A stretch of DNA of 45,657 nucleotides from an uncultured Candidatus Saccharibacteria bacterium (GTDB lineage Bacteria > Patescibacteriota > Andersenbacteria > UBA10190 > CAIZMI01), in NCBI GenBank assembly GCA_964630025.1, contig CAZVRG010000004.1:1-45657 (forward strand), in the 5' to 3' direction. This document shows, piece after piece, positions 1,064 through 44,162 of the stretch. The position numbers and the translations under genes are program-made. The stretch's first letter is position 1; the number at the start of each line of letters is the position of its first letter. The notes below the pieces were generated by a model. It worked only from the letters and a program-made list of their open reading frames with translations, was not told the DNA's origin and did not search any database.

Positions 1064-2119
1064 ATGAGCGCGGAAACACTTCTCCAAGATTTTCTCCGTG
1101 ATGTACGCAGTCTGAACGCATCGGATCTGCATCTTTCTGTTGGCCGTTCTCCCATTGTGCGCGTTGACGGAGCACTCCGCGTGCTCGAAGACCGTCATCC
1201 GCTGTCTGCCGAAGACCTTGCACAGATGGTGCAATGCGTCATGGGGATTGATCGCGCGCCGCAGTTTTTCAAGGAACGGCAGGGAATTGATATCGCATAC
1301 GAGCCGTCGCGTGACGGGCTTCGCTTTCGCGTGAATATGTTTTGGAGTCGTGGAGAGCCCGCGCTGGTGTTCCGCGCGATCTCGCGCACCGTTCGGACGT
1401 TGCGCGACCTGTCGCTTCCCGATACCCTGCTCCGATTCACGGAACCAAAAAAAGGTTTTGTGCTTTTTGCTGCCCCTTCCGGTCATGGAAAAACCACCAC
1501 GATGGCGGCGCTCGTCGAATACATCAATCAAACACGTTCCGAGCACATTATTACCATTGAAGATCCCATTGAGTATGTGTACACCGATGCGCGCTCGCTT
1601 GTGCATCAGCGTGAAATCGGCACCGATACGCGTTCCTTCCCCGATGCGATCCGTTCCGCGCTCCGAGAAGACCCGAACATTCTCGTGATCGGAGAAATGC
1701 GCGATCTGGAGACGATTGCCGCGGCGCTCACGGTCGCAGAAACGGGCCATCTGGTATTCGGCACCATTCATACGAACGATGCCGCGCAAACGATTGACCG
1801 TATTCTCGACGCATTTCCCGCGGATCGTCAGTCGGAAGTGCGGGTACAGCTTGCAGGAGCGCTCACCGGCGTTGTGTCGCAGCGTCTTCTTCCGCGGGTG
1901 TCCGGCGGACGCGTGCCCATCGTAGAGATTCTCGTGGCCAATCCGGCGGTACGCAATCTTATTCGGGAAGGGGAAACCGAACAGATTCCCGGACTCATTC
2001 AAACAGGTGCGGACGCAGGAATGGTATCGCTGGAACGCTCCATTGCGGAGCTGCTCCGACGCGGAGAGATCACGCCGGACGCAGCACGGCCCTATGTGTC
2101 TTCGAATGTTCCGTCGTGA
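1064..2119 (+). CDS. pilT: Twitching-motility (pilus retraction) ATPase PilT
   Basis: Walker A APSGHGKTTT, Asp box ITIEDPIEY, Walker B ILVIGEMRD and His box GHLVFGTIHTNDA. The 351-aa size is typical of PilT. Confidence 0.9.
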   Translation: MSAETLLQDFLRDVRSLNASDLHLSVGRSPIVRVDGALRVLEDRHPLSAEDLAQMVQCVMGIDRAPQFFKERQGIDIAYEPSRDGLRFRVNMFWSRGEPALVFRAISRTVRTLRDLSLPDTLLRFTEPKKGFVLFAAPSGHGKTTTMAALVEYINQTRSEHIITIEDPIEYVYTDARSLVHQREIGTDTRSFPDAIRSALREDPNILVIGEMRDLETIAAALTVAETGHLVFGTIHTNDAAQTIDRILDAFPADRQSEVRVQLAGALTGVVSQRLLPRVSGGRVPIVEILVANPAVRNLIREGETEQIPGLIQTGADAGMVSLERSIAELLRRGEITPDAARPYVSSNVPS

Positions 2120-2184: not shown

Positions 2185-3393
2185 ATGCCTGAATATTCAT
2201 ACCGCGCGCGCACCCGCCTGGGGCGCGTCACCAAAGGAACGGTAAAAGCCGCGAGTCCCGAACGCGCAAGCGAAATGCTTGCCGAGCACGGTCTCGTTCC
2301 TTTGGAGATTCAGGATGTCCGTGAGCTTGCATTCTGGAAGCGCGATATCAAATTTGGCGGCGTGCGCACCCGCGACCGTGCCATTTTTGCGCGGGAACTC
2401 GCAACGATGATCGAGGCAGGCATTCCCATTTTGCAGGCGTTGCGCATTTTGGGGCAGCAAACAGACAGCGCGCGCTTGGCGGATATCCTTCGGAATGTCA
2501 GTTACGAGGTCGAGGGTGGCAGTCTGTTGAGTAACGCGCTCGAAAAGTACGCACGGGATTTTTCCGAGTTCTTTGTGAGCATGGTGCGTTCCGGAGAAGC
2601 AAGCGGCCAGGTATCCAAAGCGCTTCTTTCGCTTGCGGAACATGAGGAGCGCGATGCGGAGCTCGTACGCAAAGTGCGTACCGCGCTGCTCTATCCGGCA
2701 TTTGTGCTCGTGATGATGGTCGTGCTCGTTCTCATCATGGCCAATTTCGTCATGCCGCAGCTCACGCAATTGTTCGAAGAAGCGCACGTAGCGCTTCCAT
2801 TGATCACGCGTGTCTTTTTGGGCGTGACACTCTTTCTCCAGAGATTCTGGTGGTTCGTGCTGCTCTTCCTCGGCATTGTGGTGTACATCACGATGAGTTA
2901 TCTCCGCACGCAGGAGGGAAAGTACAACGCAAGTGCATTTGTGCTGCGTCTCCCGCTCTTGAGCACGCTTCTCCGAAAGCTCTATCTTGCCCGCTTTTCT
3001 GGCGCTCTGCAGACGCTGCTTGAAGCGGAGGTGCCCGTGGTCCGCGCGCTGCTTATCGCACGCGATGTGATCGCCAATCGCGTCTATCAGAATATTATCG
3101 AGCGTACCGCTGAAGACGTGAAAAACGGCAGTACCATCTCCCAGGCGCTCGAGAAATATCCTGATATTCCCATGATGGTCTCCGCGATGATTGGCGTGGG
3201 CGAGCGCAGCGGGCAGCTTGGACAAGCGTTTGGAAATGTTCACCGCTTATACCGGCGGGATGTCGACGATGCATTGAGCAATCTGACGGTGCTTATTGAG
3301 CCCATTGTGATTGTGGTGATTGGTATTGGCGTCGCGTTTTTGCTCGCTGCGGTGCTGCTGCCCATCTACAGTCTTATTCAAGTGGTTTCGTAA
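2185..3393 (+). CDS. pilC: Type IV pilus platform protein PilC (GspF family)
   Basis: 402 aa with two GspF-type repeats (ELATMIEAGIPILQAL and LQTLLEAEVPVVRAL) and hydrophobic TM segments after each. Confidence 0.9.
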   Translation: MPEYSYRARTRLGRVTKGTVKAASPERASEMLAEHGLVPLEIQDVRELAFWKRDIKFGGVRTRDRAIFARELATMIEAGIPILQALRILGQQTDSARLADILRNVSYEVEGGSLLSNALEKYARDFSEFFVSMVRSGEASGQVSKALLSLAEHEERDAELVRKVRTALLYPAFVLVMMVVLVLIMANFVMPQLTQLFEEAHVALPLITRVFLGVTLFLQRFWWFVLLFLGIVVYITMSYLRTQEGKYNASAFVLRLPLLSTLLRKLYLARFSGALQTLLEAEVPVVRALLIARDVIANRVYQNIIERTAEDVKNGSTISQALEKYPDIPMMVSAMIGVGERSGQLGQAFGNVHRLYRRDVDDALSNLTVLIEPIVIVVIGIGVAFLLAAVLLPIYSLIQVVS

Positions 3394-3496
3394 GGCTCGT
3401 GCACATGTGTGGTAAACTTTCCTGTGTGATTCGCCAGCACTGTTCCCATTGCTCCGGAGTAGTTTCTTGTGGAGTATTGAGAGGAGGTGAGCGCAC

Positions 3497-4027
3497 ATGA
3501 ACATTCGTCAAGCTGGGCTACGCGGCGGGTTTACCCCGCACCAGCTCTTCCGTGGGAAAAGTAGTGCGGGATTTACGCTCATCGAGCTTCTCGTGGTCAT
3601 TGCGATCATCGGGATTCTCGCAACGCTCATCTTCATTTCCTTAGGAGCTGCCCGCGCACGGGCGCGTGACACGCGGGTGGTCTCCAACCTCGAACAGGCA
3701 ATGACGGTGTGTATTCTCCGTCAGGATGTGTACGGAGATCATCAGAAATGCGTGAAGACCGATCAAGGCGAAAGTGAATCGCCAGGCGCACTTTCTCGTC
3801 TCGACAAAGACACCGCGCAGATTGACGGCGTTGGTGGAGCAAATGACGGCGGTATTACCCTCGATCCGGGACCGAGTAACAGCAAAATGTGCATGCTGGT
3901 CACGTTGAATGCAAAGAGCGGGAGCAATAATAAGAAGTTTTGCCGCGATGACGGTGGAAACGTCACCTCATCGGTTGGTTCAGCAGATGCAAGCTGCAAC
4001 CTCGGCGTCTGCAACCCGGGGACATAA
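3497..4027 (+). CDS. Type IV pilin (probable major pilin) with a long class III leader
   Basis: Prepilin motif GKSSAG/FTLIELLVVIAIIGILA with Gly-1, Phe+1 and Glu+5. A strong SD GAGGAGGTGA lies at 3481-3490. The C-terminus has Cys residues consistent with a disulfide loop. Confidence 0.85.
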   Translation: MNIRQAGLRGGFTPHQLFRGKSSAGFTLIELLVVIAIIGILATLIFISLGAARARARDTRVVSNLEQAMTVCILRQDVYGDHQKCVKTDQGESESPGALSRLDKDTAQIDGVGGANDGGITLDPGPSNSKMCMLVTLNAKSGSNNKKFCRDDGGNVTSSVGSADASCNLGVCNPGT

Positions 4028-4042
4028 GATCACGATGGATCA

Positions 4043-4834
4043 ATGTGGTCGGTAAGCGCATTGGTGATCGGAGCGATTGTTGGAAGCACGCTTACCACGA
4101 TTATTGAACGGCTCCCTCGGCAGGAATCATTCCTCCGAGGGAGATCGCGTTGCCCGCACTGCGGAACATCCCTGACCGCGCGGGACCTTTTCCCCATCGC
4201 AAGTTTTCTTCTGCTGCGCGGGCGGTGCCGGCACTGCGCTGTTCCCATTCCGCGCTGGCATCTGGCGGTGGAGATCAGTGTGCCGGCGTTGTTTCTTCTG
4301 GCGGTTGTGCTGCTGCCTGGGTCCGCGGTTCCTGATCAGGTTTCCCGCTGGGTGCTGCTCGCGTTGCTTCTCGCGCTCACGGTGATTGATCTGCAGACAT
4401 TTCTGTTGCCGGACGTGCTGGTGCTTGCCATGGCGGGCGTCGGTGTTGTGCGGAGTGTCACGTTGCACATGCCGCCCCTTCCCTCCGCACTTCTTGGAGG
4501 AATTGTTGGTTTAGGCGTGCTGGGGGCGTTTGCGCTGATCCCCTGGCGTCGTCGGTCGGGTGACCGTACCGATGCGCTTCCTGCAACCGCCATGGGACTT
4601 GGGGATGCAAAACTCGCCGGTGCGATGGGCGTTGTTCTCGGCATGCAGGGGCTCATCACGGCACTCTTTGTGGCGTTTGTCGCTGGCGGTGCGGTAGGAA
4701 GCGCACTTCTTCTCACGCGGCGCGCAACCTTTGCGAGCCGCATCCCGTTCGGACCATTCTTGGCGGGCGCAACGATGCTCATTCTCCTGTTTCCCAACCT
4801 TCCGCATCTCTTTTTTGGTCTGTTGGGATTCTGA
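4043..4834 (+). CDS. pilD: Prepilin peptidase / N-methyltransferase PilD (peptidase A24)
   Basis: N-terminal CPHC...CRHC zinc motif, a polytopic membrane profile and the GLGDAKLAGAMG catalytic Asp motif. Confidence 0.9.
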   Translation: MWSVSALVIGAIVGSTLTTIIERLPRQESFLRGRSRCPHCGTSLTARDLFPIASFLLLRGRCRHCAVPIPRWHLAVEISVPALFLLAVVLLPGSAVPDQVSRWVLLALLLALTVIDLQTFLLPDVLVLAMAGVGVVRSVTLHMPPLPSALLGGIVGLGVLGAFALIPWRRRSGDRTDALPATAMGLGDAKLAGAMGVVLGMQGLITALFVAFVAGGAVGSALLLTRRATFASRIPFGPFLAGATMLILLFPNLPHLFFGLLGF

Positions 4835-4835
4835 T

Positions 4836-4938
4836 ACACCCCGTTAGAGACCTTTGAGGATTTTTCGCGCTATCGCGCAGGGAATAGAGATATGAAACCA
4901 GCGTCGGCTTTTTCAGAAGGTTTCTAACGGGGTATACT
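4836..4938. repeat. CCCCGTTAGA-type inverted repeat, copy 1, ending in a TATACT -10 box
   Basis: Left arm ACACCCCGTTAGAGACC and right arm GGTTTCTAACGGGGTATACT, with a 65-nt spacer containing a small CGCG-CTAT-CGCG hairpin. TATACT lies at 4933-4938, 17 nt before ATG 4956. Confidence 0.8.
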
Positions 4939-4955
4939 ACAGAGAAACGGACAGC

Positions 4956-5546
4956 ATGACGCAATTCATAGGGAACAGGGAACAGAGAACAGGACACAGA
5001 GAACGCACGCAACGCGTCCCTGATCCCTGTTCCCTGATCCCTGTTCCTTTTCCCTCGTCGTCCGCTGGCATCACCTTCATTGAAGTGCTGGTCACGGTCT
5101 TCATCGTTGGGCTTATGTCCACCATTCTTCTCGTTGGCGCTGTCGGTGCGCGGAGAAACGCGACGGTCCGGACTGCCGCGCAGCAGGTAGCGGCATTTCT
5201 TCGTGAGACGGGAAACCTTGCGCTGAACGGCGTGAAAGCAGAAGATTGCGACCCAAGCGATTCGCAGTGCTCTGCCTATCGCGTCACGCTCGGTCCATCA
5301 GACACCAAGACCGCGTACATGCGTCAGGCGCTTGGCGGCGGAGAAGAAGTGCGTGTGCCGTTGCCCGTCGGTGCGGTGTTTCCCGTCACGAATCAAGAAG
5401 TGGAATTCGTCTACACCCCCCCAATCCTTTCTGCAACGGCGGCGGAGATTGCCATAACGCATACAACCGGCGCGCCGCGGTGGCTGGTCTGCGTCACCTC
5501 GCTGGGAAGTGTTACCGTACAAACAGGAGAACAGTGCGTGCAATGA
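4956..5546 (+). CDS. Minor pilin / pseudopilin (prepilin-type N-terminal domain)
   Basis: PSSSAG/ITFIEVLVTVFIVGLM with Glu+5. The ~38-aa leader is encoded by heptamer hairpin H1. No in-frame ATG, GTG or TTG lies between the hairpin and the cleavage motif. Confidence 0.75.
   Translation: MTQFIGNREQRTGHRERTQRVPDPCSLIPVPFPSSSAGITFIEVLVTVFIVGLMSTILLVGAVGARRNATVRTAAQQVAAFLRETGNLALNGVKAEDCDPSDSQCSAYRVTLGPSDTKTAYMRQALGGGEEVRVPLPVGAVFPVTNQEVEFVYTPPILSATAAEIAITHTTGAPRWLVCVTSLGSVTVQTGEQCVQ
4971..5047. repeat. Heptamer-arm hairpin H1 (inside the pseudopilin leader)
   Basis: Left arm GGGAACA GGGAACA GAGAACA GGACACA, core GAGAACGCACGCAACGCGTCCC, right arm TGATCCC TGTTCCC TGATCCC TGTTCC. The arms are near-perfectly complementary. 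Confidence 0.85.
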
Positions 5547-6238
5547 CACAAACACCAGTGAACAGGGAACAGGGAACAGGGAACAGGGAACGCACGCAGC
5601 GTGTCCCTCCAGTCTCTGGCCTAAGTAAGGCCTCGTCGTCCGGCTTTACCCTTCTCGGTGTTCTCATTGGCGCGTTGTTCATTGTTCTTGTCTCCACGGG
5701 ACTTGTGTTCACCGCACAGCGCACGGGACGTGTTGCCACCGCAACCAAAGAACGGCTCATTTCGACACTTCTTGCGCGGGAAGGTGTTGAACTTGTGCGC
5801 GCGATTCGCGATAACAACTGGCTCGCGACGCCGCGGTGTCCTGCAGTTGGCGCGTGCACGATTTTTTGGCGTGGGCAAACGAGTGGTCCGGGTGCACTCT
5901 GTAACGGAACGTTTCGCATCGATGCCGACGCGCTTGAACTTCTCCCTGCTTCCGCAGGTAGTGAAGAAACGCGGCTTGCACTCGATGGCACAGCATACCG
6001 TCATGGCAGCGGCACGCCAACGACATACCGGCGTTGGGTCACTATTGAATCGCCGGAGGAAGGATGCGGAACACCCTCGATCTTCTCCCTCGGATCCATT
6101 CCCGCTCCGCAACCGCCACAGCCGCTGACGGTGCGTGTGGTTGTGGCATGGGACGACAACCCCGATGCTTCCTGTGCGCCAGGCCGTCAGTGTGTTGAAT
6201 TACGAGAAGATCTTCACCCGTGGATGAATTTCCGATGA
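5543..6238 (+). CDS. Minor pilin / pseudopilin-like protein
   Basis: KASSSG/FTLLGVLIGALFIVLV, with no Glu+5. ATG 5543 overlaps the upstream TGA (ATGA), so it was preferred over the 5246 ORF extension, which overlaps the upstream gene out of frame. The leader is encoded by hairpin H2. Confidence 0.7.
   Translation: MTQTPVNREQGTGNRERTQRVPPVSGLSKASSSGFTLLGVLIGALFIVLVSTGLVFTAQRTGRVATATKERLISTLLAREGVELVRAIRDNNWLATPRCPAVGACTIFWRGQTSGPGALCNGTFRIDADALELLPASAGSEETRLALDGTAYRHGSGTPTTYRRWVTIESPEEGCGTPSIFSLGSIPAPQPPQPLTVRVVVAWDDNPDASCAPGRQCVELREDLHPWMNFR
5558..5620. repeat. Heptamer-arm element H2 (degenerate right arm)
   Basis: GTGAACA followed by four GGGAACA units (the last truncated), then core GCACGCAGCGTGTCCC. 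The right arm TCCAGTCTCTGG is only weakly complementary. Confidence 0.7.
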
Positions 6239-6861
6239 ACATACGGATACGAGGGATCAGAGAACAGGGGACAGTGAACAGAGAACGCACCCGACGCGTC
6301 CCTGTCCTCTGTGCTCTGCCCCCTGTCCCCGCGTCGTCCGGCTTTACCTTCATTGAAGCGATTGTTTCTGTTGCCATCTTTCTTGTGCTTATCGGTACGG
6401 TGGCGGGAATTTTTTCCACGTTCTCGCGCCAGCAGAAGCAGGGCATTACGCAGGCAACGCTTCTTGGGGAAGCGCAGGCCGCCATCGAAATCTTGGAACG
6501 GGAAGTACGGACAGGGTTCTCCAATACATTTTCCGGTGCTGGCGCCGCGTTCAGCTTTCGCAACCAAAATAACGTTCTCGTCACGTATGAACTCGCCGAT
6601 GGGCGCCTGATGCGGCGCGCTGTTCCTCCAGATCAAGCAACCCCGGTCACGCCGGCGACTGTGGAGATACGGTCGCTCGAATTTGTGACACGCACGCCAA
6701 CCATCGATCTTGGCGCAGCGCCCCAAGTGCCCATTCTCACCGGAGAACAAGGCCGCGTCACTGTCCGCATGCGCATGTGCCCCACAGGCATTGATACCGA
6801 TCAGCGATGCCTGCAGGTACAGACAACCTTAACGTCGCGCCAATATGCACCCGCACTCTAA
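6235..6861 (+). CDS. Minor pilin / pseudopilin
   Basis: PASSG/FTFIEAIVSVAIFLVLIG with Glu+5. ATG 6235 overlaps the upstream TGA; the alternative start is GTG 6220. The leader is encoded by hairpin H3. Confidence 0.7.
   Translation: MNIRIRGIREQGTVNRERTRRVPVLCALPPVPASSGFTFIEAIVSVAIFLVLIGTVAGIFSTFSRQQKQGITQATLLGEAQAAIEILEREVRTGFSNTFSGAGAAFSFRNQNNVLVTYELADGRLMRRAVPPDQATPVTPATVEIRSLEFVTRTPTIDLGAAPQVPILTGEQGRVTVRMRMCPTGIDTDQRCLQVQTTLTSRQYAPAL
6253..6330. repeat. Heptamer-arm hairpin H3
   Basis: Left arm GGGATCA GAGAACA GGGGACA GTGAACA GAGAAC, core GCACCCGACGCGTCC, right arm CTGTCCT CTGTGCT CTGCCCC CTGTCCCC. Confidence 0.8.
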
Positions 6862-7312
6862 GCGAGAACAGCGCATCACGCACACCTCGTCATCACGCGG
6901 TGATACATCGATTCTTCTTATTTCTCTGTTGCTGATCGTTCTTGTGCTTGGCGCAACGGCACTGACGGTCCTTTCTATAGTGAATCTTCGCGGAGCAGGA
7001 AATGTTGCCGAAAGCTCTCAAGCACTCTATGCCGCTGACACCGGCGTCGAACGCGGATTGTCACTGTACTGGTGGAGCAATCCGTTATCCCCAACATGTA
7101 CGCAGGAAGATAATGTTCCGGTGGGAGACGCCGCAACATACCAACTCACCGTTCGGTCGGATACTGATTCTTGCCCCACATTGCTGGATTTGCAAGGCGG
7201 CGTGCGCGCCCTGTGTGTAGAAGCAATCGGGAAAGTGCGTGATGGCGAGGTACGACGGCGTGTGACCAACGATACAAACCCCACAGGTCTTCTGAATCCC
7301 TGCGGTCGGTAG
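6845..7312 (+). CDS. PilX-like / minor-pilin-like protein with an N-terminal hydrophobic helix
   Basis: ILLISLLLIVLVLGATALTVL followed by ALYAADTGVERGL, reminiscent of PilX N-terminal domains. It overlaps the upstream gene by 17 nt and is last in the pilin operon. Confidence 0.55.
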   Translation: MHPHSKREQRITHTSSSRGDTSILLISLLLIVLVLGATALTVLSIVNLRGAGNVAESSQALYAADTGVERGLSLYWWSNPLSPTCTQEDNVPVGDAATYQLTVRSDTDSCPTLLDLQGGVRALCVEAIGKVRDGEVRRRVTNDTNPTGLLNPCGR

Positions 7313-7316
7313 ACTC

Positions 7317-9552
<2,236 letters not shown>

Positions 9553-12923: not shown

Positions 12924-15311
12924 ATGGTCTTCGTGTCTAAGTGGCGCGACGCGAGCGATGCGTTTTTTCTTGCTGTCCTTCTGATCAGCGGTGTTTCCGT
13001 TGCCGGCGCTGTCTTAAGCTTGGCGCGGTTTGCGCAGGAATATGGTCCCGTTGTTGCGCAGGATCTTGAAGAGCCTGTTCCCCCACCTGGCCCGGCTCCA
13101 GAACCACCTCCGCCTGACCCACCGCCTCCGCCGCCTGGAACCGAACTAGCCCCCCCGGGTGGGGATCCTCCGCCCGCACCGGGCGGCGGGCCTGCTCCAG
13201 CTCCCGCACCTCCGCCAACGGGTGGTACTCCCCCAGCAGGTGGCACACCGCCCGCTCCGCCTCCGCGAGGGGGGCCAGGACCAGCGCCACAACCGGCGCC
13301 ACCCCCGCCAGTTGGCGTGCCGCCCGGCGTGGACGAAATTGAGCCCGCACCAGGTGAAACGGTCTCCCCAGTACCGACAAATGGTGTGTTTCCACCCGCC
13401 GTGCAGCCTGCTCCTCCGGGCGGAGGAGAGCCGGTGTCTGGTCACACGCTGCCGTGGTGGGGCGTGTTCTGGCATCCGGGCGGTGGCGGATTTATCCAGA
13501 TCCTTCCGTGGCAGCAGATTCTCCAAAAACCCATCACGTGGGTATGGATCTTTTTGTGGATTGCGATTTTCGTGTGGCTCTGGACAATTGTGCAGGCCAT
13601 CTATTGGTTCCCGGGATTTTTCTGGATTCTGTTCGGGTTCCACTCGTTCATTTGGTACTGGTATTGGCTGTGGACGTGGTTCTGGGGTTTCATTCGACCA
13701 CAACCGATCACTGTAGGAATTGGACCCGGTCCAGGACCCGGGCCATGGCCGGGTCCTGGACCACAACCTGCGCCTGGCCCCTGGCCGGGTCCTGGGCCGC
13801 AGCCCGGTCCACAACCCGGTCCCGGACCAACTCCGGGGCCTATGCCGGGCCCTCAACCTGGGCCCGCTCCCGGGCCTGGTCCGGGCCCCGGTCCGCAACC
13901 AGGTCCAACTCCTGGTCCGGGTCCTACCCCGCAACCTGGACCCATGCCTGGGCCGCAACCAGGTCCCAGCCCCGGTCCCCAGCCGGGTCCAATGCCAGGG
14001 CCACAGCCCGGGCCTCCCCCAGGCCCAATTCCTGGTCCGCAACCTGGGCCGACGCCCAGTCCAACTCCTGGTCCTATCCCGGGTCCCCAGCCGACGCCTG
14101 GCCCGTGGCCGGGCCCTGGCCCACAACCTGCGCCTGGCCCGTGGCCGGGCCCTGGGCCGCAGCCGGCGCCTACACCCGGTCCGCAACCTGGCCCCGGACC
14201 CATTGCTGGTCCGCCACCAATTTCCGGACCAGGCGGAGGCTCGCCATCTGGTCCGGCTCCCGATCCCGTGTCACCGGTTGAGGAGGGTATCGGAAGACTT
14301 CTGGCCAGATTGCCGTCACGTGCGGGAAGAATTGCCGCGGAGAGCGTTGCGCGCGGAGAGCTTCCTATTCCTGCATTAAGCGGACAGAGAGCGGCGGAAG
14401 CTCCGTCGCTCACAGAAGTGATGATGGCGTCTGCCGATTCTCGGCGTCTGACGGGTTTTTCCGCACTAGGCATTCTTGCCACACATCGATACCGATCGAA
14501 GTGGGGGCGCGTGATTGATGCCAAGAATGGGCTTCCTGTGCAAGGGGCAGTTGTGACGCTTCTGGATGCGCAGGGAAAACCGCGCCAAAACATTCGTACA
14601 AAAGCAGATGGCAATTTTGCGTTTCTTGTCCCTCCTGGCCGCTATCTTCTGAATGTGGTGCGTCCACACTATGTGATGGAAACGCAGCCCAAGTCGCCCG
14701 CGCTCTTTCCTGACGAAATCTTGTATACAGGAGCGCCCTTCGCCGTCGAGCCGTCACCCGATGGTCGGGAAACGCTCACGCCGCCGGTGGTGATCACCAT
14801 GAAATCTACAAAAAAAGGCGCGCAGGGCGTGTCTGTGCGTCCGGCCGTGCATCGGGTCAGCAATGCCGCGCGTGCACTGCATGCGCACGTGGCGCTTCCG
14901 ATCCTGTTATTGAGTGCAGGATTTAACACCTTTATGCTTCTTCTGCAGCCCACGCCGTTTCTTGTTGCCGCAGAAGTGCTTTACGGCGTCTTGCTGTCCA
15001 TGGAATTGTTGCTTTCCCGCGTCTTCCGCCGCGCGATCGGGCGTTTGCGTGATGCCGTGACACGCAATCCGGTTTCCCTTGCGATTCTTCGGCTCATGGA
15101 TGCGCGCACGGGACGCATTGTCAACACGTATGTGTCCACAGCGGGTGGGTCGTTTCTCTTCCTTTCTCGCCCCGGAGCCTACCGTCTCCTATCGGCACAT
15201 CCGAAATACCAACCGCATGATGAGCGGATTGCCATTCGCGGCGGATCGCCCGGGCTCGGAAGAGTAACGGTCCGCCTGCAGCCACGGGGGAAAGTGGTCG
15301 CGGCAGTCTAA
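12924..15311 (+). CDS. Proline-rich, Trp-rich membrane protein with a (PGPX)n repeat and two carboxypeptidase-regulatory-like domains (paralog P2)
   Basis: The N-terminus SKWRDASDAFFLAVLLISGV is homologous to P1. The C-terminal half is collinear with P1 (WGRVIDAKNGLPVQGAVVTLLD...GRYLLNV; GRLRDAVTRNPVSLAILRLMD...GAYRLLS). A unique W-rich block and a PGPX array are inserted between them. Confidence 0.7.
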   Translation: MVFVSKWRDASDAFFLAVLLISGVSVAGAVLSLARFAQEYGPVVAQDLEEPVPPPGPAPEPPPPDPPPPPPGTELAPPGGDPPPAPGGGPAPAPAPPPTGGTPPAGGTPPAPPPRGGPGPAPQPAPPPPVGVPPGVDEIEPAPGETVSPVPTNGVFPPAVQPAPPGGGEPVSGHTLPWWGVFWHPGGGGFIQILPWQQILQKPITWVWIFLWIAIFVWLWTIVQAIYWFPGFFWILFGFHSFIWYWYWLWTWFWGFIRPQPITVGIGPGPGPGPWPGPGPQPAPGPWPGPGPQPGPQPGPGPTPGPMPGPQPGPAPGPGPGPGPQPGPTPGPGPTPQPGPMPGPQPGPSPGPQPGPMPGPQPGPPPGPIPGPQPGPTPSPTPGPIPGPQPTPGPWPGPGPQPAPGPWPGPGPQPAPTPGPQPGPGPIAGPPPISGPGGGSPSGPAPDPVSPVEEGIGRLLARLPSRAGRIAAESVARGELPIPALSGQRAAEAPSLTEVMMASADSRRLTGFSALGILATHRYRSKWGRVIDAKNGLPVQGAVVTLLDAQGKPRQNIRTKADGNFAFLVPPGRYLLNVVRPHYVMETQPKSPALFPDEILYTGAPFAVEPSPDGRETLTPPVVITMKSTKKGAQGVSVRPAVHRVSNAARALHAHVALPILLLSAGFNTFMLLLQPTPFLVAAEVLYGVLLSMELLLSRVFRRAIGRLRDAVTRNPVSLAILRLMDARTGRIVNTYVSTAGGSFLFLSRPGAYRLLSAHPKYQPHDERIAIRGGSPGLGRVTVRLQPRGKVVAAV
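13720..14240 (+). repeat. Coding tandem repeat with 12-nt period, encoding (P-G-P-X)n
   Basis: ~43 tetrapeptide units (PGPQ/PGPT/PGPM/PGPW...). A ~62-nt block at 13741-13803 recurs nearly identically at 14101-14163, exactly 360 nt downstream. Confidence 0.9.
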
Positions 15312-20047: not shown

Positions 20048-20082
20048 CGTAACATGGCGCTGTGCGTGCGCGGTTCCGGGTA

Positions 20083-20140
20083 TCCCCGTTAGAAACGTTC
20101 CGCAGAAAGAACGTGCAGTCAGTTTCTACCGGGGTATACT
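20083..20140. repeat. CCCCGTTAGAAAC inverted repeat, copy 2, ending in TATACT
   Basis: TCCCCGTTAGAAAC ... GTTTCTACCGGGGTATACT with a 25-nt spacer. TATACT lies at 20135-20140, 9 nt before ATG 20150. Confidence 0.8.
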
Positions 20141-26253: not shown

Positions 26254-28508
<2,255 letters not shown>

Positions 28509-28720: not shown

Positions 28721-28933
28721 ATGGTTTTGTCCGCACTGAAGGCCTTTCGCCTTCCGTCGCTGCTCGGCTTCACCCGTGAGGTCCGGCAGGAACTTAAAGG
28801 TGTGCAATGGCCGAGTCGCGAGACGACGGTGCGTTTTACCGTGCTCGTCATCGGCGTATCGGCAGTTGTCGGCATTGCAACGAGCCTTCTTGATGCTCTC
28901 CTCACGCTTGGGGTTGAACAGATTCTTCCGTAG
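28721..28933 (+). CDS. secE: Preprotein translocase subunit SecE
   Basis: 70 aa with FTREVRQELKGVQWPSRETTVRFTVLVIGVSAVVG, a single TM. It sits upstream of nusG as is usual. Confidence 0.8.
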   Translation: MVLSALKAFRLPSLLGFTREVRQELKGVQWPSRETTVRFTVLVIGVSAVVGIATSLLDALLTLGVEQILP

Positions 28934-29002
28934 CTTCTAGCTTGTAGCTTGTAGGCGGTCATAACGCACGTTCCTATAAACTAGAAGCTATAACCTAGAA
29001 CC
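28931..29002. repeat. Heptamer-arm hairpin H4 (fills the secE-nusG gap)
   Basis: Left arm TAGCTTC TAGCTTG TAGCTTG TAGG, core CGGTCATAACGCACGTT, right arm CCTATAA ACTAGAA GCTATAA CCTAGAA. It starts on the secE stop codon and ends 8 nt before the nusG ATG. Confidence 0.8.
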
Positions 29003-30688: not shown

Positions 30689-31111
30689 ATGGCAAAGGAA
30701 GTTCTTACGCAGGTAAAGCTGCAGATTCCCGGCGGGAAAGCGACGCCGGCGCCTCCCATTGGGCCGGCGCTGGGTCAGCATGGCGTGAACATACAAGACT
30801 TCTGCTCGAAGTTCAACGAGCAAACACGCGACAAGCAGGGCGAAGTGACGCCTGTAGTGCTGACAATTTATAAGGATCGCTCGTTCACCTTCATTTTCAA
30901 AACCCCGCCCGCAGCGGAGCTCTTGAAGAAAGCTGCGGGGGTTGAGAAAGGGTCCGGCACGCCAAACACCGCGAAAATCGGCACCGTCACGAAAGCACAG
31001 GTGCGCGAGATTGCGGAAAAGAAAATGGTGGACTTAAATGCCTCCGGTGTTGATGAGGCGATGCGGATTATCGAAGGCACCGCGCGGTCTATGGGGATTT
31101 CAGTTAAATAA
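30689..31111 (+). CDS. rplK: 50S ribosomal protein L11
   Basis: [26 protein letters not shown] and the full-length L11 pattern. Confidence 0.95.
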
Positions 31112-31112
31112 T

Positions 31113-31221
31113 CAAGCTCCAATAACCAAGCTCCAAACAATGTTCAAGCTCCAAGCTCCAAAACACTCCCGTTTTTTCATTGAGTATTGGAATTGTTTGG
31201 AATTTGGAATTTGAGATTTGG
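31113..31221. repeat. Heptamer-arm hairpin H5 (fills the rplK-rplA gap)
   Basis: The left arm is rich in AAGCTCC/CAAGCTC units and the right arm in GGAATTT/GAATTTG units. Pairing needs G.U pairs and a few mismatches. Confidence 0.75.
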
Positions 31222-31235
31222 TATTTTTTACGACT

Positions 31236-31913
31236 ATGCCTTCCAAACGCTACCAAGCCGCCAAAAAAGAACGTCCTACGGAAGCAAAATCCCTCCCGGA
31301 GGCCGTGAGCTTCGTGCATGCGCACGCAAAGGCGAAATTCGATGAAACGATCGAGCTGCACGCGCATCTCGGCGTCGACCCGAAAAAGAGCGACCAGTCC
31401 GTGCGTGGCACGCTTGTGTTTCCACACGGTGCCCCATCCAGCGTCCGTATCGCCGTCTTTACCGACGATCGTGAACTGCAGAAGTTGGCAAAAGAAGCTG
31501 GGGCGGATGTTGTCGGGGGCGAAGAACTGATTGCGAAGGTCAAGACCGAAGAAAAGCTCGACGCAGACGTTGCTGTGGCAACACCGGATTCCATGAAAGG
31601 TCTCGCAGCGGTTGCCAAGGTGCTTGGTCCCAAAGGGCTTATGCCGAATCCGAAAACGGGCACGATCGGTCCGGATCCTGCGAAGATTGTGAAAGAATTA
31701 AAGGGCGGGAAAACCGCATTTAAGATGGACGATTCCGGAAACGTACACCTTGCCGTCGGGAAAGCATCATGGGATGTCGAGAAACTCACGGCGAATACGA
31801 AGGCGGCGATTGATGCGCTCCGGCAATCCAAGCCGGCCGCTGCAAAAGGGGAGTTCCTGAAGTCCATGACGCTCACGTCCACCATGGGTGCGGGCGTACG
31901 GGTAAGAGTCTAA
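31236..31913 (+). CDS. rplA: 50S ribosomal protein L1
   Basis: KFDETIELHAHLGVDPKKSDQSVRGT and GPKGLMPNPKTGT. The start was set to ATG 31236. Confidence 0.95.
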   Translation: MPSKRYQAAKKERPTEAKSLPEAVSFVHAHAKAKFDETIELHAHLGVDPKKSDQSVRGTLVFPHGAPSSVRIAVFTDDRELQKLAKEAGADVVGGEELIAKVKTEEKLDADVAVATPDSMKGLAAVAKVLGPKGLMPNPKTGTIGPDPAKIVKELKGGKTAFKMDDSGNVHLAVGKASWDVEKLTANTKAAIDALRQSKPAAAKGEFLKSMTLTSTMGAGVRVRV

Positions 31914-31926
31914 AAAGTCAGCATAC

Positions 31927-31958
31927 AGAAAAAGAGCGGCTCCATGATATGGTGCCGC
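31927..31958 (-). terminator. Hairpin terminator oriented for the minus strand (may also serve rplA)
   Basis: On the minus strand, GCGGC-A-CCAT-ATC-ATGG-A-GCCGC is followed by TCTTTTTCTG. Confidence 0.6.
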
Positions 31959-32006
31959 CCTTAGTAATTGCGTACTTCCCAAATGATCGTGTTTCGACAA
32001 AGGACG

Positions 32007-32084
32007 TCATGAACGGAGCTTGTTGCCGAATGTTCCCTTCCTGTACAGCGCAAGCATCACCTGTTTATTCGGGACCTCGGACAT
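32007..32084 (-). CDS. Candidate 25-aa small ORF (MSEVPNKQVMLALYRKGTFGNKLRS)
   Basis: Not in the ORF track because it is too short. A strong SD GAGGAGGA lies 6 nt upstream of the ATG, and a terminator lies ~50 nt downstream. It sits in a lower-GC 320-nt gap. Confidence 0.35.
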   Translation of the reverse strand: MSEVPNKQVMLALYRKGTFGNKLRS

Positions 32085-32202
32085 TTCTTTCCTCCTCAAA
32101 AGTAGACAAATGAACAGACGAACAATACCCATGCGATAGTACGAGCCGAAATGCTTTGTGTCTAGAGCTTGGCTCACATCGCATAATCACTTGATCACCC
32201 GC

Positions 32203-32231
32203 TTGTCCTCAATAAGCACTCGCCGTACGCT
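32203..32231 (+). promoter_or_regulatory. Putative promoter of gatB
   Basis: TTGTCC, a 17-nt spacer, then TACGCT. The ATG lies 6 nt after the -10 box, implying a leaderless mRNA. Confidence 0.5.
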
Positions 32232-32237
32232 ACATCT

Positions 32238-33725
32238 ATGGAACTTGAAACCATCATCGGCCTGGAGATTCACGTCCATTTGAATACGAAATCGAAGCTG
32301 TTTTGCAGCTGCCGTAACGTGTCGGCGGCTGATCGACCGAATCAATACGTCTGTCCGGTCTGCATGGGATTCCCAGGGACGCTGCCCGTGACGAATGCGC
32401 AAGCGATTGAATGGACGGCGCTCGCCGGTCTGGCGCTTGGCTGTACCATTGCGAAGCACGCGACCTTTGCGCGGAAGAGCTATTTCTATCCCGATCTGCC
32501 GAAGGGATACCAAATCTCACAGTACGATGAGCCGCTCTGCATACACGGAGAAGCGCATGTGTTTGTGGGTGACACCGATCGCCACGTGCGTATTGAGCGC
32601 GTGCATCTGGAAGAAGATGCGGCAAAGAACGTACATACCAAGGATGCAACGCGTATTGATCACAACCGCGCAGGGACGCCGTTGATCGAAATCGTCACTG
32701 CGCCCGATCTGCGTAGTCCGCAGGAAGCAAAAATGTTTCTGGAAGAGCTGCAGCGCACCATGTGGTATCTCCGCATTTCAAACGCCGACATGGAAAACGG
32801 CGATCTTCGCGTGGACGCAAATATCTCCTTGCGCGAGCAGGGAGGAAAACTTTCGCCGAAGACGGAAATCAAAAACCTTAACTCTTTCCGCGCGGTCGAG
32901 CGTGCGCTCGCGTATGAAATTGAGCGCCAGCAAAAACTGTGGGAGGCAGGAACGCCGCCGACGACATCCAGCACGCGAGGATGGAATGATGAAAAAGGGC
33001 AGACGGTGGAGCAGCGCGTGAAAGAAGCGGAAGCGGATTACCGATACTTTCCCGAGCCGGATATTCCACCCCTTGTGTTGGAGCCTTCGTGGGTCGAGAA
33101 GCTTCGCATCGCACTTCCAGAACTTCCGCATGCGAAGGAAGAACGTTTCCGTCGCCAATATCAGATGGCGCCGGCGGACGCACGTTTGATCACGACGGAT
33201 CGTTCACTTGCCGACTTCGCAGAAAATGTCTTTTCCGAGATTGGGGAATGGGTTGCGGAACGGCCAGATGTCGAGCAGCGCGAAATTCCCCTCCTGGAGA
33301 AGCTCGCCACGAATTATCTGCTCGGAGATTTTCGACGGCTTCTTTCAGACGCAAAGGCAACTGTGGCCGATACAAAAGTCACACCCGAGAATTTCGCGGA
33401 ACTTGTCGTGATGCTGCATCGCGCTGAAGTAAATCGAAACGCCGTGCCGGATGTTCTGCGTCTCATGCACGGGACAGGCGGCGATCCTTCCACCATCGTG
33501 CAAGAGCGCGGCTTGCAGCAGGTATCGGATGCGGATGAACTGCGTCGTCTCGTGCAGAACGTCGCATTGAGTTTTCCGGCAGAAGTAGACAAGGTCCGCG
33601 GCGGGAAAGAACAAACACTGGAATTTCTTGTGGGACAAGTGATGGCGCAAACAAAGGGTCGCGCGAATCCCAAGACCGTGCGCGAGCTCTTCCGCGAAGA
33701 GTTAGGACTGTCAACGAGCGGGTAA
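32238..33725 (+). CDS. gatB: Asp/Glu-tRNA amidotransferase subunit B
   Basis: IGLEIHVHLNTKSKLFC, NQYVCPVCMGFPGTLP and RKSYFYPDLPKGYQISQ, plus a C-terminal GatB/YqeY domain. Confidence 0.95.
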   Translation: MELETIIGLEIHVHLNTKSKLFCSCRNVSAADRPNQYVCPVCMGFPGTLPVTNAQAIEWTALAGLALGCTIAKHATFARKSYFYPDLPKGYQISQYDEPLCIHGEAHVFVGDTDRHVRIERVHLEEDAAKNVHTKDATRIDHNRAGTPLIEIVTAPDLRSPQEAKMFLEELQRTMWYLRISNADMENGDLRVDANISLREQGGKLSPKTEIKNLNSFRAVERALAYEIERQQKLWEAGTPPTTSSTRGWNDEKGQTVEQRVKEAEADYRYFPEPDIPPLVLEPSWVEKLRIALPELPHAKEERFRRQYQMAPADARLITTDRSLADFAENVFSEIGEWVAERPDVEQREIPLLEKLATNYLLGDFRRLLSDAKATVADTKVTPENFAELVVMLHRAEVNRNAVPDVLRLMHGTGGDPSTIVQERGLQQVSDADELRRLVQNVALSFPAEVDKVRGGKEQTLEFLVGQVMAQTKGRANPKTVRELFREELGLSTSG

Positions 33726-34754
33726 GGGTTTCCCCAAGAATTCGGACATACAGTCGAGGGCCTCTGCGGGCGAGTCCACTCGAACAAGCTCGGGCTCCTT
33801 CGTGAGCCAGAGAAGCTGTCGACGGACATACTGGCGATGCGAGCGGAGCACTGCCTCTTTCGTCTCCTCAAGCGTGCCTTCGCCGCGGAGGTGTGAGAGC
33901 ACTTGCCGGTACCCGACAGATTGCAATCCGGGCGCGTCTGCGCCATAGGCGTTCACAAGTGCCTGCACTTCTTCAACAAACCCGCGGCGGAAGTATTCTT
34001 CGACACGACGCGCAAGGCGCTGTTCGAGTATCTCCGGAGGCGGAAGAAGCGCGAGTTTTAGAAAGCGGAAGGCAGTAGGCAACGGGGAAGAGGCAGTAGG
34101 GGCGAGGACGACGTCGCGTGCATCCCTACTCCCTACTGCCTGTTGCCTGTTCCCTCGAGCTCTCGCAATTTCCAGCGCCCGAATCACCCGCCGCGTATTC
34201 TTGAGATTGTCGATGCCAGTGAAAAGGTCTGGCGCGCGTGTTTCCAGTTCCTGAAGAAGATCCGCAAGCGGTTGTTGCTCCGCCCACGCACGGAATGCGG
34301 GATCCGGCGGCACGGAAGGCAGTGAGCGATGACCTGTGAGCACACGGACATAAAAACCCGTTCCTCCAACCACAATGGGAAGTTTTCCGCGCTTGTGGAT
34401 GTCGGCAATGATATGTTGCGCGTCCTCGCGAAATTCAGCAGCGGAATACCGCTGCGTTGGGAGAAGAATATCGATAAGATAGTGGGGAACATCCTCACAG
34501 AACAATGGTTCTGTTCGGAAACCTCGAAGCTTGAATGACGAATGACGAATGCGAGTAGTTTCGAAATTCGAAATTCGGAATTCGAATGTACACGGTTTAT
34601 CCGTTCCAATATCCATCCCGAGATAAATCTGTCGGGAATCAGCACTGATAATCTCTCCGTTGTATTTCTTCGCGAGTTCCAACGCGAGCGCGGATTTCCC
34701 CGCACCGGTGGGACCCATCAAGACGACCAATGGGAGGTGAGCTTGCGATGGCAT
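33711..34754 (-). CDS. miaA: tRNA dimethylallyltransferase MiaA carrying two in-frame hairpin-element insertions
   Basis: P-loop MGPTGAGKS, ADSRQIYLGMDIGTDKP, PIVVGGTGFY and GYRQV. The start was set to ATG 34754 because the longer ORF reads through hairpin H8. The 3' end overlaps gatB convergently by 15 nt. Confidence 0.9.
   Translation of the reverse strand: MPSQAHLPLVVLMGPTGAGKSALALELAKKYNGEIISADSRQIYLGMDIGTDKPCTFEFRISNFETTRIRHSSFKLRGFRTEPLFCEDVPHYLIDILLPTQRYSAAEFREDAQHIIADIHKRGKLPIVVGGTGFYVRVLTGHRSLPSVPPDPAFRAWAEQQPLADLLQELETRAPDLFTGIDNLKNTRRVIRALEIARARGNRQQAVGSRDARDVVLAPTASSPLPTAFRFLKLALLPPPEILEQRLARRVEEYFRRGFVEEVQALVNAYGADAPGLQSVGYRQVLSHLRGEGTLEETKEAVLRSHRQYVRRQLLWLTKEPELVRVDSPAEALDCMSEFLGKPLPAR
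34072..34155. repeat. Heptamer-arm hairpin H7 (inside the miaA CDS)
   Basis: Twelve consecutive heptads (84 nt = 28 codons): GGCAGTA GGCAACG GGGAAGA GGCAGTA GGGGCGA GGACGAC GTCGCGT GCATCCC TACTCCC TACTGCC TGTTGCC TGTTCCC. Confidence 0.85.
34533..34588. repeat. Heptamer-arm element H6 (inside the miaA CDS)
   Basis: GAATGAC GAATGAC GAATGCG AGTAGTT TCGAAAT TCGAAAT TCGGAAT TCGAATG. CGAAT/ATTCG blocks pair at 7-nt spacing, separated by 2-nt mismatches. Confidence 0.7.
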
Positions 34755-34787: not shown

Positions 34788-34914
34788 AAGAAGCTCCAAG
34801 CTCCAAATGCCAAGCTTCAAGTAATGCTCAATCCGGCAATACGTAAACGCGCCAGTCGCTTTGCGTATTGGACTTGGAACTTGTTTGGAGCTTGGTGCTT
34901 GAAACTTGGAGTTT
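34788..34914. repeat. Heptamer-arm hairpin H8 (divergent intergenic region upstream of miaA)
   Basis: Left arm AAGCTCC AAGCTCC AAATGCC AAGCTTC AAGTAAT..., core ACGTAAACGCGCCAGTCGCTTTGCGTA, right arm ...CTTGGAA CTTGTTT GGAGCTT GGTGCTT GAAACTT GGAGTTT. Confidence 0.8.
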
Positions 34915-34924
34915 GCGCGAATGG

Positions 34925-34975
34925 TACACCCCGTGAGAAGTGCCAATATGCCGTGCACTTCTAACGGGGTACACT
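34925..34975. repeat. CCCCGT-type inverted repeat, copy 4, ending in TACACT
   Basis: TACACCCCGTGAGAAGTGC-CAATATGCC-GTGCACTTCTAACGGGGTACACT. The ATG lies 6 nt after the -10-like TACACT. Confidence 0.8.
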
Positions 34976-43096: not shown

Positions 43097-43181
43097 GGGC
43101 ATAGGGTATGGGGAATGGGGCATAGGGTTACGCAGAGACGTAAGCGAGAAACCATGCACCATGCCCCAACCCCCACGCACC
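43097..43181. repeat. Heptamer-arm hairpin H9 (divergent region upstream of dnaE)
   Basis: Left arm GGGCATA GGGTATG GGGAATG GGGCATA GGGTTAC, core GCAGAGACGTAAGCGAGAAA, right arm CCATGCA CCATGCC CCAACCC CCACGCA. Confidence 0.8.
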
Positions 43182-43980: not shown

Positions 43981-44162
43981 AAAACCGCATACACTGGCGC
44001 GCTGTTCGCTCACGAATCCCACCGGCACAGCCGGATGCGTTCGTGAGCGAACCCTTCGGGCTTGGCGTTCGCTCCGCTCCTCACTCGCTGTATGTCACAT
44101 ACAGCTCGTTCGGTGCTCGCTCCACGCCTACGCATCGTATCCAGTTTCTGCGGTTTTTTTTT
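43979..44162 (+). repeat. ~175-nt structured repeat, copy E3 (ends in a T-run)
   Basis: Outer stem AAAACCGCATACACTGG/CCAGTTTCTGCGGTTTT followed by T9. Stem 2 is GTTCGCTCACGAA/TTCGTGAGCGAAC, capped by CCGGCACAGCCGG. Stem 3 is GCTGTATG/CATACAGC. It starts on the stop codon. Confidence 0.85.

Follow-up and report, generated by a model that had tools for sequence, protein, structure and literature searches.

The window analyzed here, 45,657 nucleotides (45.7 kb) of contig CAZVRG010000004.1, carries a type IV pilus operon in which three consecutive minor-pilin genes contain, between the start codon and the prepilin-cleavage site, related elements built from tandem heptamers. We refer to these elements as H1, H2 and H3. 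The host is a groundwater bacterium of the Parcubacteria, within the Candidate Phyla Radiation (CPR, or Patescibacteria), and its nearest named relative is "Parcubacteria group bacterium Gr01-1014_38". An identical pilin-1 protein is found on a contig of the metagenome-assembled genome GCA_007375805.1 and in two other assemblies. The window, L001, L002 and L003 are four assemblies of one locus, probably from one sample; the sequence is identical in all four, and an assembly artefact was rejected on this ground. The locus has a dedicated prepilin peptidase (peptidase A24) and assembly genes: those for a PilT-like ATPase and PilC are followed by the genes for the pilins and the peptidase, and downstream of four small pilin-like genes lie ligA and then gatCA (Table 1).

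The three elements share a core, GAACGCACGCAACGCGTCCC, located at 5001, 5588 and 6283 with 0, 2 and 2 mismatches, respectively, compared to an expectation of 0.03. Four to five tandem GGGAACA-like heptamers stand 5' of every core, and complementary TGTTCCC-like heptamers stand 3' of it in H1 and H3. The arms of H1 are 81–88% complementary. Folding energies of the elements revealed a strong fold for H1 (–44.4 kcal/mol, z –8.6) and a moderate one for H3 (–36.1 kcal/mol, z –4.0). The fold of H2, which has no complementary 3' arm, was no better than chance (–24.6 kcal/mol, z –1.4; 20 of 200 shuffles equal it). Two of the three hairpins claimed for the leaders thus hold, whereas H2 is a half-element. 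Its array comprises 5.1 copies at 96% match by Tandem Repeats Finder (TRF), which counts 4.1–5.1 copies per arm; seven was the sole array-forming period among those of 5–11 tested. The 5' arm and core are 80–88% identical among the three copies (shuffled maximum, 71%), and the mature pilins 23–33%, in keeping with the earlier description of a near-invariant core in front of diverged pilins. The peptide pattern NREQ.TG.RERT.RVP, originally ascribed to all three leaders, is exact in pilins 1 and 2 and only approximate in pilin 3, which reads IREQGTVNRERTRRVP. The 45.7 kb contain only three canonical G-quadruplex (G4) motifs, at 5565–5588 (plus strand, H2), 5018–5041 (minus strand, H1) and 43097–43120 (plus strand). 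The motif is on the sense strand in H2 and on the antisense strand in H1; H3 and the heptamer families without GGG have none.

The three pilin frames open at ATG codons at 4956, 5543 and 6235, the last two of which overlap the upstream stop codon as ATGA. Independent gene calls on the three other assemblies chose the same starts. Each frame passes through the period-7 array and the core and then reaches the cleavage motif, SSSAG/ITFIE, SSSG/FTLLG or SSG/FTFIE (the slash marks the predicted cut). Because the insert lengths are all multiples of three, with the frame preserved, and because the frame used in H1 and H2 is the sole stop-free sense frame, we infer that the elements lie on the mRNA and are translated. 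The only promoter-like match in the interval 3300–7600, where the match count is not above chance, lies upstream of H1, and its –10-like TATACT is conserved in L055 and L061; H1–H3 would therefore be on the transcript. The orthologous starts and the conserved ATGA overlaps agree with the kept frame and the promoter-like site, and together they support, by inference, the original proposal that the hairpins are both transcribed and translated. Intron-like excision was rejected, as strict frame preservation argues for translation.

It is extremely unlikely that the starts are mis-annotated, such that the hairpins would be untranslated intercistronic or 5'-untranslated-region structures and the pilins would initiate at a non-canonical codon near the cleavage site. 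Several starts do lack an obvious Shine-Dalgarno sequence, and non-canonical CTG and ATC codons are present within the 3' arm of H1. Yet no in-frame ATG, GTG or TTG lies between the elements and the G/F(I)T site in the three pilin ORFs (open reading frames), as had been stated at the outset, and alternative downstream starts were rejected accordingly. The upstream ATG codons have orthologous counterparts in element-free relatives, with the ATGA coupling conserved, and more than eight independent inserts (in the pilins, gyrB and miaA) all keep the frame and are stop-free, which untranslated sequence need not be. A leaderless prepilin would also miss the Gly-1 context required for processing (PMC4471445). 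A class III signal peptide has a hydrophilic leader of 6–26 aa ending in Gly-1, followed by a hydrophobic helix of about 21 residues with Glu5, and the prepilin peptidase cuts after Gly-1 on the cytoplasmic side (PMC4471445). The leaders of 38, 34 and 36 aa are hydrophilic and net positive, yet they exceed this range (PMC4471445). Glu5 is present in pilin 1 (G/ITFIEVLV) and pilin 3 (G/FTFIEAIV) and absent from pilin 2 (G/FTLLGVLI) and all of its orthologues. The Pfam N_methyl scores are 19.6 bits for pilin 1 (below the cut-off) and 22.6 bits for pilin 3 (above it), with no match for pilin 2.

A search with pilin 1 returned eight relatives, and in five of these, at 62–73% identity, the orthologue has a 10-aa leader, MTRxxRxSSG/FTFIE, with no counterpart of H1. 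We compared four syntenic loci, L055, L056, L061 and L062, whose gene order and ATGA overlaps are the same as in the window. The baseline leaders there are 10–16 aa for all pilins, compared to 25, 38, 34 and 36 aa in the window. H1 is absent from the orthologues P0002–5 and P0007 and from L055, L061 and L062; the pilin-2 leader is 18–21 aa longer than in L055, L056 and L061; and the pilin-3 orthologue of L056 has the element-free leader MNTLGDRRNG. In the DNA alignments TATACT...ATGAC upstream and the GG-TTY-ACC codons downstream are conserved, with the element inserted between them. The alignments show H1–H3 as insertions relative to orthologues with the same start codon, the reading frame being kept. 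Strong hairpins, unrelated in sequence to H1–H3, likewise make up the long leaders found in pilin 1 of L056 and pilin 3 of L055. As judged from these comparisons, the leader-coding segment is an indel hot spot in which different palindromes landed in different lineages, and H1–H3 are not conserved. We attribute the near-invariant core to recent shared descent of the three copies within a single subfamily and not to deep conservation. The notion of a conserved leader hairpin is not borne out by the relatives' loci, whose comparison the initial annotation had itself suggested: L055, L061, L062 and L056 have the same pilins without the leader element. This is one half of what it had named as speaking against its view, the other being unaltered expression. 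Separately, the core segment CGCACGCAAC resembles the element-free pilin-1 leader of L061, CGCACGCCAC (L061 6001–6030), with numbers too small to interpret.

Heptamer arrays are not confined to the pilin genes. The window has eight heptamer loci (H1, H2, H3, D, E, F, G and H), seven of which consist of two convergent, inverted arrays, H2 being the single array; five of the eight lie in frame inside ORFs. Same-type elements occur in frame in the housekeeping gene miaA and in intergenic spacers. Read in the sense of miaA, element F contains GGGAACAGGCAACAGGCAGTAGGG...GCACGCGACGTCGTCC and aligns with H1 and H3 in the same orientation; it adds 15 aa relative to L064 and is patchy among orthologues. 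Element G is an insertion of about 27 aa between DIGTxKP and VPHxLID compared to solved MiaA structures. It is absent in P0019 and P0020, and P0021–29 hold other inserts at that site. Both miaA sites are patchy across 15 Parcubacteria orthologues: the 72%-identical P0020/L064 is without either element, and P0023/L063 has an AAGCTCC-type heptamer hairpin among the differing inserts. L064 and L061, both derived from one sample, stand for a close relative (identities of 98% for NusG, 94% for GatB and 94% for GyrB). Its miaA start is straddled by a different heptamer hairpin (GAGTTAT x4, z –3.8; L064 4906–4981), with the ATG within the 5' arm and the 3' arm translated. L064 also has an orthologous, diverged counterpart of element D in the same secE-nusG spacer (3.6 units in the window vs 4.4 in L064), and its rplK-rplA spacer measures 3 nt vs 125 nt in the window. 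The heptamer arrays at L064 9294–9327 and 10889–10919 are situated just upstream of rplK and within the secE-nusG spacer; their positions partly match those of the window, and their units differ. L064 carries a thymidylate kinase gene (7446–8150) between rplA and gatB, where the window has only a 325-nt gap (31913–32238).

Table 1. Features of the pilin locus and heptamer and related elements of the window. Leader lengths in relatives are given where compared.
Feature	Position	Strand	Description
PilT-like ATPase	1064..2119		type IV pilus operon
PilC	2185..3393		type IV pilus operon
Major pilin	3497..4027	+	leader 25 aa (relatives 10–11 aa); 42-nt insert ~3534–3575
Prepilin peptidase (PilD-like)	4043..4834	+	263-aa ORF; PF06750 and PF01478 on the identical L001 gene; 74–75% identity to L055/L061 orthologues
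Promoter-like site	4910..4938	+	TTTTCA-17-TATACT; 17 nt 5' of pilin-1 ATG
Minor pilin 1	4956..5546	+	leader 4956–5069, 38 aa (relatives 10, 10, 10 aa; L056 54 aa); predicted cleavage after G38, SSSAG/ITFIE; N_methyl residues 35–59
H1, heptamer-arm hairpin	4970..5049	+	GGGAACA-type 5' arm; core 5001–5020; TGTTCCC/TGATCCC 3' arm; in frame, +28 codons
Minor pilin 2	5543..6238	+	leader 5543–5644, 34 aa (relatives 13–16 aa; L062 30 aa); SSSG/FTLLG; no Glu5; ATGA overlap with pilin 1
H2, half-element	5556..5607	+	(GGGAACA)x4–5 array 5556–5591; core 5588–5607; 3' arm missing or replaced
Minor pilin 3	6235..6861	+	leader 6235–6342, 36 aa (L056 10 aa, L062 22 aa, L055 67 aa); SSG/FTFIE; ATGA overlap with pilin 2
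H3, heptamer-arm hairpin	6250..6331	+	core 6283–6302; in frame, +26 codons
Fourth minor pilin (PilX-like)	6845..7312	+	PF14341; 4 additional leader codons (REQR) vs relatives (alignment)
Element D	28930..28991		secE-nusG spacer; GTAGCTT units; z –3.2; ends ~19 nt before nusG ATG (29010)
Element E	31111..31222		fills rplK-rplA spacer; CAAGCTC / TTTGGAA units; z –3.9
Element F	34078..34148	-	in frame in miaA, reads GNRQQAVGSRDARDVV; GGGAACA-type; core GCACGCGACGTCGTCC; –50.7 kcal/mol, z –4.5
Element G	34533..34583	-	in frame in miaA between DIGTDKP and VPHYLID; GAATTTC/GTCATTC units; z –2.1
Element H	34791..34914		upstream of miaA; AAGCTCC / TTGGAGC units; z –4.1 to –4.5
(T)ACCCCGTTAGA...TCTAACGGGGTA pairs	4837–4934, 20082–20136, 26254–26320, 34927–34971		second palindromic family

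We consider it probable that H1–H3 are one subfamily of lineage-specific palindromic heptamer repeats, inserted in frame and tolerated in a cleaved leader, and that no dedicated regulatory role is required. They look like tolerated invasive DNA, not like a conserved control element. Transcription would start from the promoter upstream of pilin 1, and translation would yield class III leaders of 34–38 aa. Such a hydrophilic, net-positive leader would stay cytoplasmic, and the adjacent prepilin peptidase would remove it and leave the mature pilins unchanged. Because the peptidase would remove it, the leader could tolerate insertions and serve as a permissive landing site, like a surface loop of MiaA. 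The overlap of the cistrons (ATGA) would leave no intergenic space for elements. The stems start at +15 or later, which would be just beyond the initiation footprint, and the elongating ribosome would unwind them. Pilin 2 begins with MTQ, like pilin 1 and unlike its own orthologues (MN.R/MSG), which suggests possible copying between paralogous 5' ends. Template-switch correction or structural selection probably maintains the complementarity of the arms, and the missing 3' arm of H2 may represent decay.

Several observations weigh against this interpretation. Leader sequence of about 100 nt holds three of the eight heptamer loci, a number above what insertion at random in permissive space would produce, and this clustering points to target preference, local copying or selection. 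L059, from Hainich groundwater, encodes a distant pilin-1 orthologue (48% identity) and has a same-family heptamer hairpin at the same position (z –3.4); its pilin-2 leader holds another hairpin. Because of these two leaders, the link of the elements to minor-pilin leaders is either recurrent or old. A degenerate heptamer hairpin is present in L060. Compensatory double changes were found in 5 of 20 pairs (RNAalifold; H1, H3, L059 and F). Of the four substitutions among the cores, three are silent changes at third codon positions (CAA>CAG, CGC>CGT, ACG>ACC), numbers too small to interpret. The polarity of gain versus loss was taken from the majority of relatives and not from a rooted tree, and both translation and cleavage of the leaders are predicted from sequence. 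Alignments with empty sites contained no target-site duplication flanking H1–H3, and there was no transposase among the 30 window ORFs scanned; because neither was found, the elements are only presumed to be mobile.

Some of these observations would fit a regulatory function, in which a cis-acting RNA hairpin after each start, or the G4 in H2, throttles or stabilizes each minor-pilin cistron and sets the minor-to-major stoichiometry or the sites of RNase processing. We regard this as unlikely. The stable stems of pilins 1 and 3 start at +15 to +19, and heptamer hairpins hug start codons elsewhere, those of nusG, rplA and miaA in the window and of rplK, nusG and miaA in L064. The position of the secE-nusG hairpin is common to both although its sequence drifted. 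The recurrence in the pilin-1 and pilin-2 leaders of L059, the five compensated pairs, and the presence in H2, on the sense strand, of one of the few G4 motifs of the window could be read in the same way, and a role as translational regulators has been put forward for heptamer repeats close to start codons (PMC4679880; bioRxiv 10.1101/2022.06.06.494920). The unpaired probability of the AUG is also somewhat lower in the window (0.19–0.36) than in element-free orthologues (0.41–0.83). Yet the predicted accessibility of the –12..+12 region is overall unchanged (0.43–0.44 with the element, 0.34–0.65 in element-free orthologues); occlusion of the start region was rejected on this basis, and the earlier idea that a stem gates translation finds no support there. 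The same operon exists in close relatives without the elements, unrelated palindromes occupy the same leaders in relatives, and H2 is stemless. In miaA the same elements lie in the middle of the gene, which makes a start-codon function impossible there. The further suggestion that the elements mark the minor pilins for coordinated processing finds no support either: H2 lacks a 3' arm, and comparable elements occur within miaA and in spacers.

The repeats are also of a form that could slip. If slipped-strand gain or loss of one 7-nt unit shifted the frame, a single minor pilin would be switched on or off, as with the CTCTT repeats of Neisseria opa. A non-triplet tandem repeat of 4–5 units, up to 96% perfect in H2, in the 5' coding region of surface-filament genes would suit such phase variation; there is a precedent in leader-peptide-coding sequence (PMC3745409), and the orthologous element D differs by its fractional unit count between the window and L064. 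We nonetheless hold phase variation to be very unlikely, and no observation here directly supports either it or a regulatory role. None of the arrays is long, and those of H1 and H3 are imperfect; across all three elements the window does not differ from L001, L002 or L003, although the four probably represent one sample. The same architecture is found for hairpins in essential genes and spacers (miaA, rplK-rplA), for which switching would do harm or serve no purpose, and loss of frame in pilin 1 would in addition break the coupling of the overlapping cistrons downstream. A bolder combination, in which an episymbiotic CPR bacterium switches or tunes each minor pilin by 7-nt slippage, by a hairpin or G4 in the leader, or by both, and in which the family homes to first codons, strikes us as quite unlikely. 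The homing part derives from hairpins of unrelated units at the same positions across relatives, namely in the pilin-1 and pilin-2 leaders of L059, at the miaA start of L064 and in the secE-nusG spacer.

Database searches recovered neither the core itself nor a matching Rfam family. The degenerate core had 51 matches in 185,579 species-representative genomes, all of them single chance matches in high-GC genomes without heptamer flanks, and the core with its flank had one chance match in Joint Genome Institute (JGI) metagenome contigs. A protein profile of the three leaders, run against 5.8 billion proteins, matched nothing but small, spurious ORFs made of translated (GGGAACA)n arrays; one was cyanobacterial, and the core was missing from all of them. 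No Rfam family reached its gathering score, the only hits being far-sub-threshold look-alikes of microRNA precursors (generic hairpins), and a known structured RNA was rejected since none matched. We came across no published description of such elements, either from CPR genomes or within prepilin leaders.

The window and its relatives contain further palindromes and inserts. The insert in the major-pilin leader (42 nt, ~3534–3575) is a small palindrome of another kind, CCCCGCAC..GTGCGGG, with a duplicated GGxTTTAC (GFT) motif on its flanks. Palindromes of the form CCCCG...CGGGG are inserted exactly in the GG/TTYAC codons of the Gly-Phe-Thr motif in this leader and in the pilin-1 leader of L056 (10020–10160), with a duplication of about 4 nt (TTTA / TTCA) that creates a duplicated pseudo-cleavage motif (GGFTPHQ...AGFTLIE, AGFTPLQ...TGFTFLE). 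A second palindromic family, (T)ACCCCGTTAGA...TCTAACGGGGTA, forms four inverted pairs, with 8 arm matches vs 1.5 expected. Each pair ends in a –10-like TA(T/C)ACT, 13–20 nt before an ATG (pilin 1, a DUF362 gene, gyrB and a 189-aa gene), and L064 lacks the copy that lies upstream of gyrB. This family looks like transposable elements of the miniature inverted-repeat type (MITEs) and may carry or target promoters. In gyrB itself, a perfect 48-nt palindrome (26358–26405) is in frame at codon 9 (+16 aa) and is absent from the 94%-identical GyrB of L064, which has the same ATG. Behind the start of proS (37040–37150, minus strand), the window has 52 aa in frame that are an insert relative to L064 and belong to the repeat family CCCACTTCGCCCTC...CTTCGCGGGGCAGG, which has three direct copies in the window; related sequence occurs at L055 8729–8824 (the ligA N-terminus) and at about L059 610–700 (the pilin-2 leader). 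Hairpins at 44004–44052 and 44076–44116 lie in the long N-terminal extension of a predicted FtsW/RodA-like ORF, and the latter (GCTCCTCACTCG...CTCGTTCGGTGC) shares its family with a part of the 57 aa inserted in the pilin-3 leader of L055. The ORF at 12924–15311, with CarboxypepD_reg domains, has GC-rich 12/36-nt tandem repeats at 13722–14171 (GGxCCx-type, of collagen-like periodicity) with many internal inverted repeats.

If H1–H3 are indeed tolerated insertions, CPR/Patescibacteria genomes would host a phenomenon like that of the Rickettsia palindromic elements (RPEs), in which heptamer palindromes colonize coding regions without breaking the frame, the hot spots being leader peptides that are cleaved off, N-termini and surface loops. 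Class III leaders of 34–67 aa, far beyond the textbook range of 6–26 aa, would offer a natural test of prepilin-peptidase tolerance. The locus would also be a tractable case for the origin of palindromes with heptamer arms and for the upkeep of arm complementarity. Annotation calls for caution, as repeat DNA that is translated may account for long "novel" N-terminal extensions or inserts in CPR proteins. The finding by itself reveals no new regulatory mechanism.

Among the closest known systems are the inverted pairs of G-rich heptamers, GGGAATC in Xanthomonas and GGGGA(T/C)T in Nostoc (Rehm et al. 2015, PMC4692102). Xanthomonas has 70–75 convergent inverted pairs per genome, of about four units, with stem-loop or G4 potential; the repeats are 89–93% intergenic, under-represented in coding regions, located near ORF starts or ends, and transcribed (PMC4692102). 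The window elements share with these the 7-nt unit starting with GGG, the approximate four units and the inverted pairing. They differ in that five of the eight loci are in frame inside ORFs, and in that many units coexist (GGGAACA, GTAGCTT, AAGCTCC, GAATGAC), only some of which are G4-capable. The short tandemly repeated repetitive (STRR) heptamers of cyanobacteria are further comparable repeats. Likewise, repetitive extragenic palindromic (REP) sequences, with the related bacterial interspersed mosaic elements (BIMEs) and REP doublets forming hairpins (REPINs), and MITEs are small dispersed hairpin repeats at gene boundaries, with presence/absence polymorphism and possible effects on mRNA stability. 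REPs, in contrast, are extragenic and tied to REP-associated tyrosine transposases (RAYTs), whereas the window encodes no transposase; MITEs have terminal inverted repeats and target-site duplications, and none were seen for H1–H3. The MITE pattern fits the (T)ACCCCGTTAGA...TCTAACGGGGTA family better than it does H1–H3. The CTCTT tract of Neisseria opa (PMC3745409) is similarly a non-triplet tandem repeat in the leader-coding part of a surface-structure gene. The opa tracts are direct-only, longer and demonstrably length-polymorphic, whereas the arrays here have 4–5 units plus an inverted copy and no observed length variation.

The RPEs are selfish palindromes that insert into protein-coding genes in frame and are translated there (Ogata et al. 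2000, reviewed in PMC10969869). The window elements resemble them as short multi-copy palindromes that lie in frame in unrelated genes, are predicted to be translated at tolerated positions, are absent in orthologues and have copies that decay. The pilin leaders supply three core-sharing copies and miaA a related one, with z of –4 to –8.6 for H1, H3 and F; in-frame insertion, with orthologues lacking the insert, is seen in pilins 1–3, at the two miaA sites and in gyrB. RPEs are about 100–150 bp long and have family-specific conserved peptides and no 7-nt periodicity, whereas the window elements measure 50–125 bp and have tandem-heptamer arms that vary by locus. The CPR host and the favoured site, a cleaved class III leader peptide, are further differences. 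In view of the heptamer architecture and the host, homology to a described RPE family would not be expected; we regard the comparison as an analogy and not as membership, an analogy that extends to the host, which, like the hosts of RPEs, is a reduced-genome, host-dependent bacterium.

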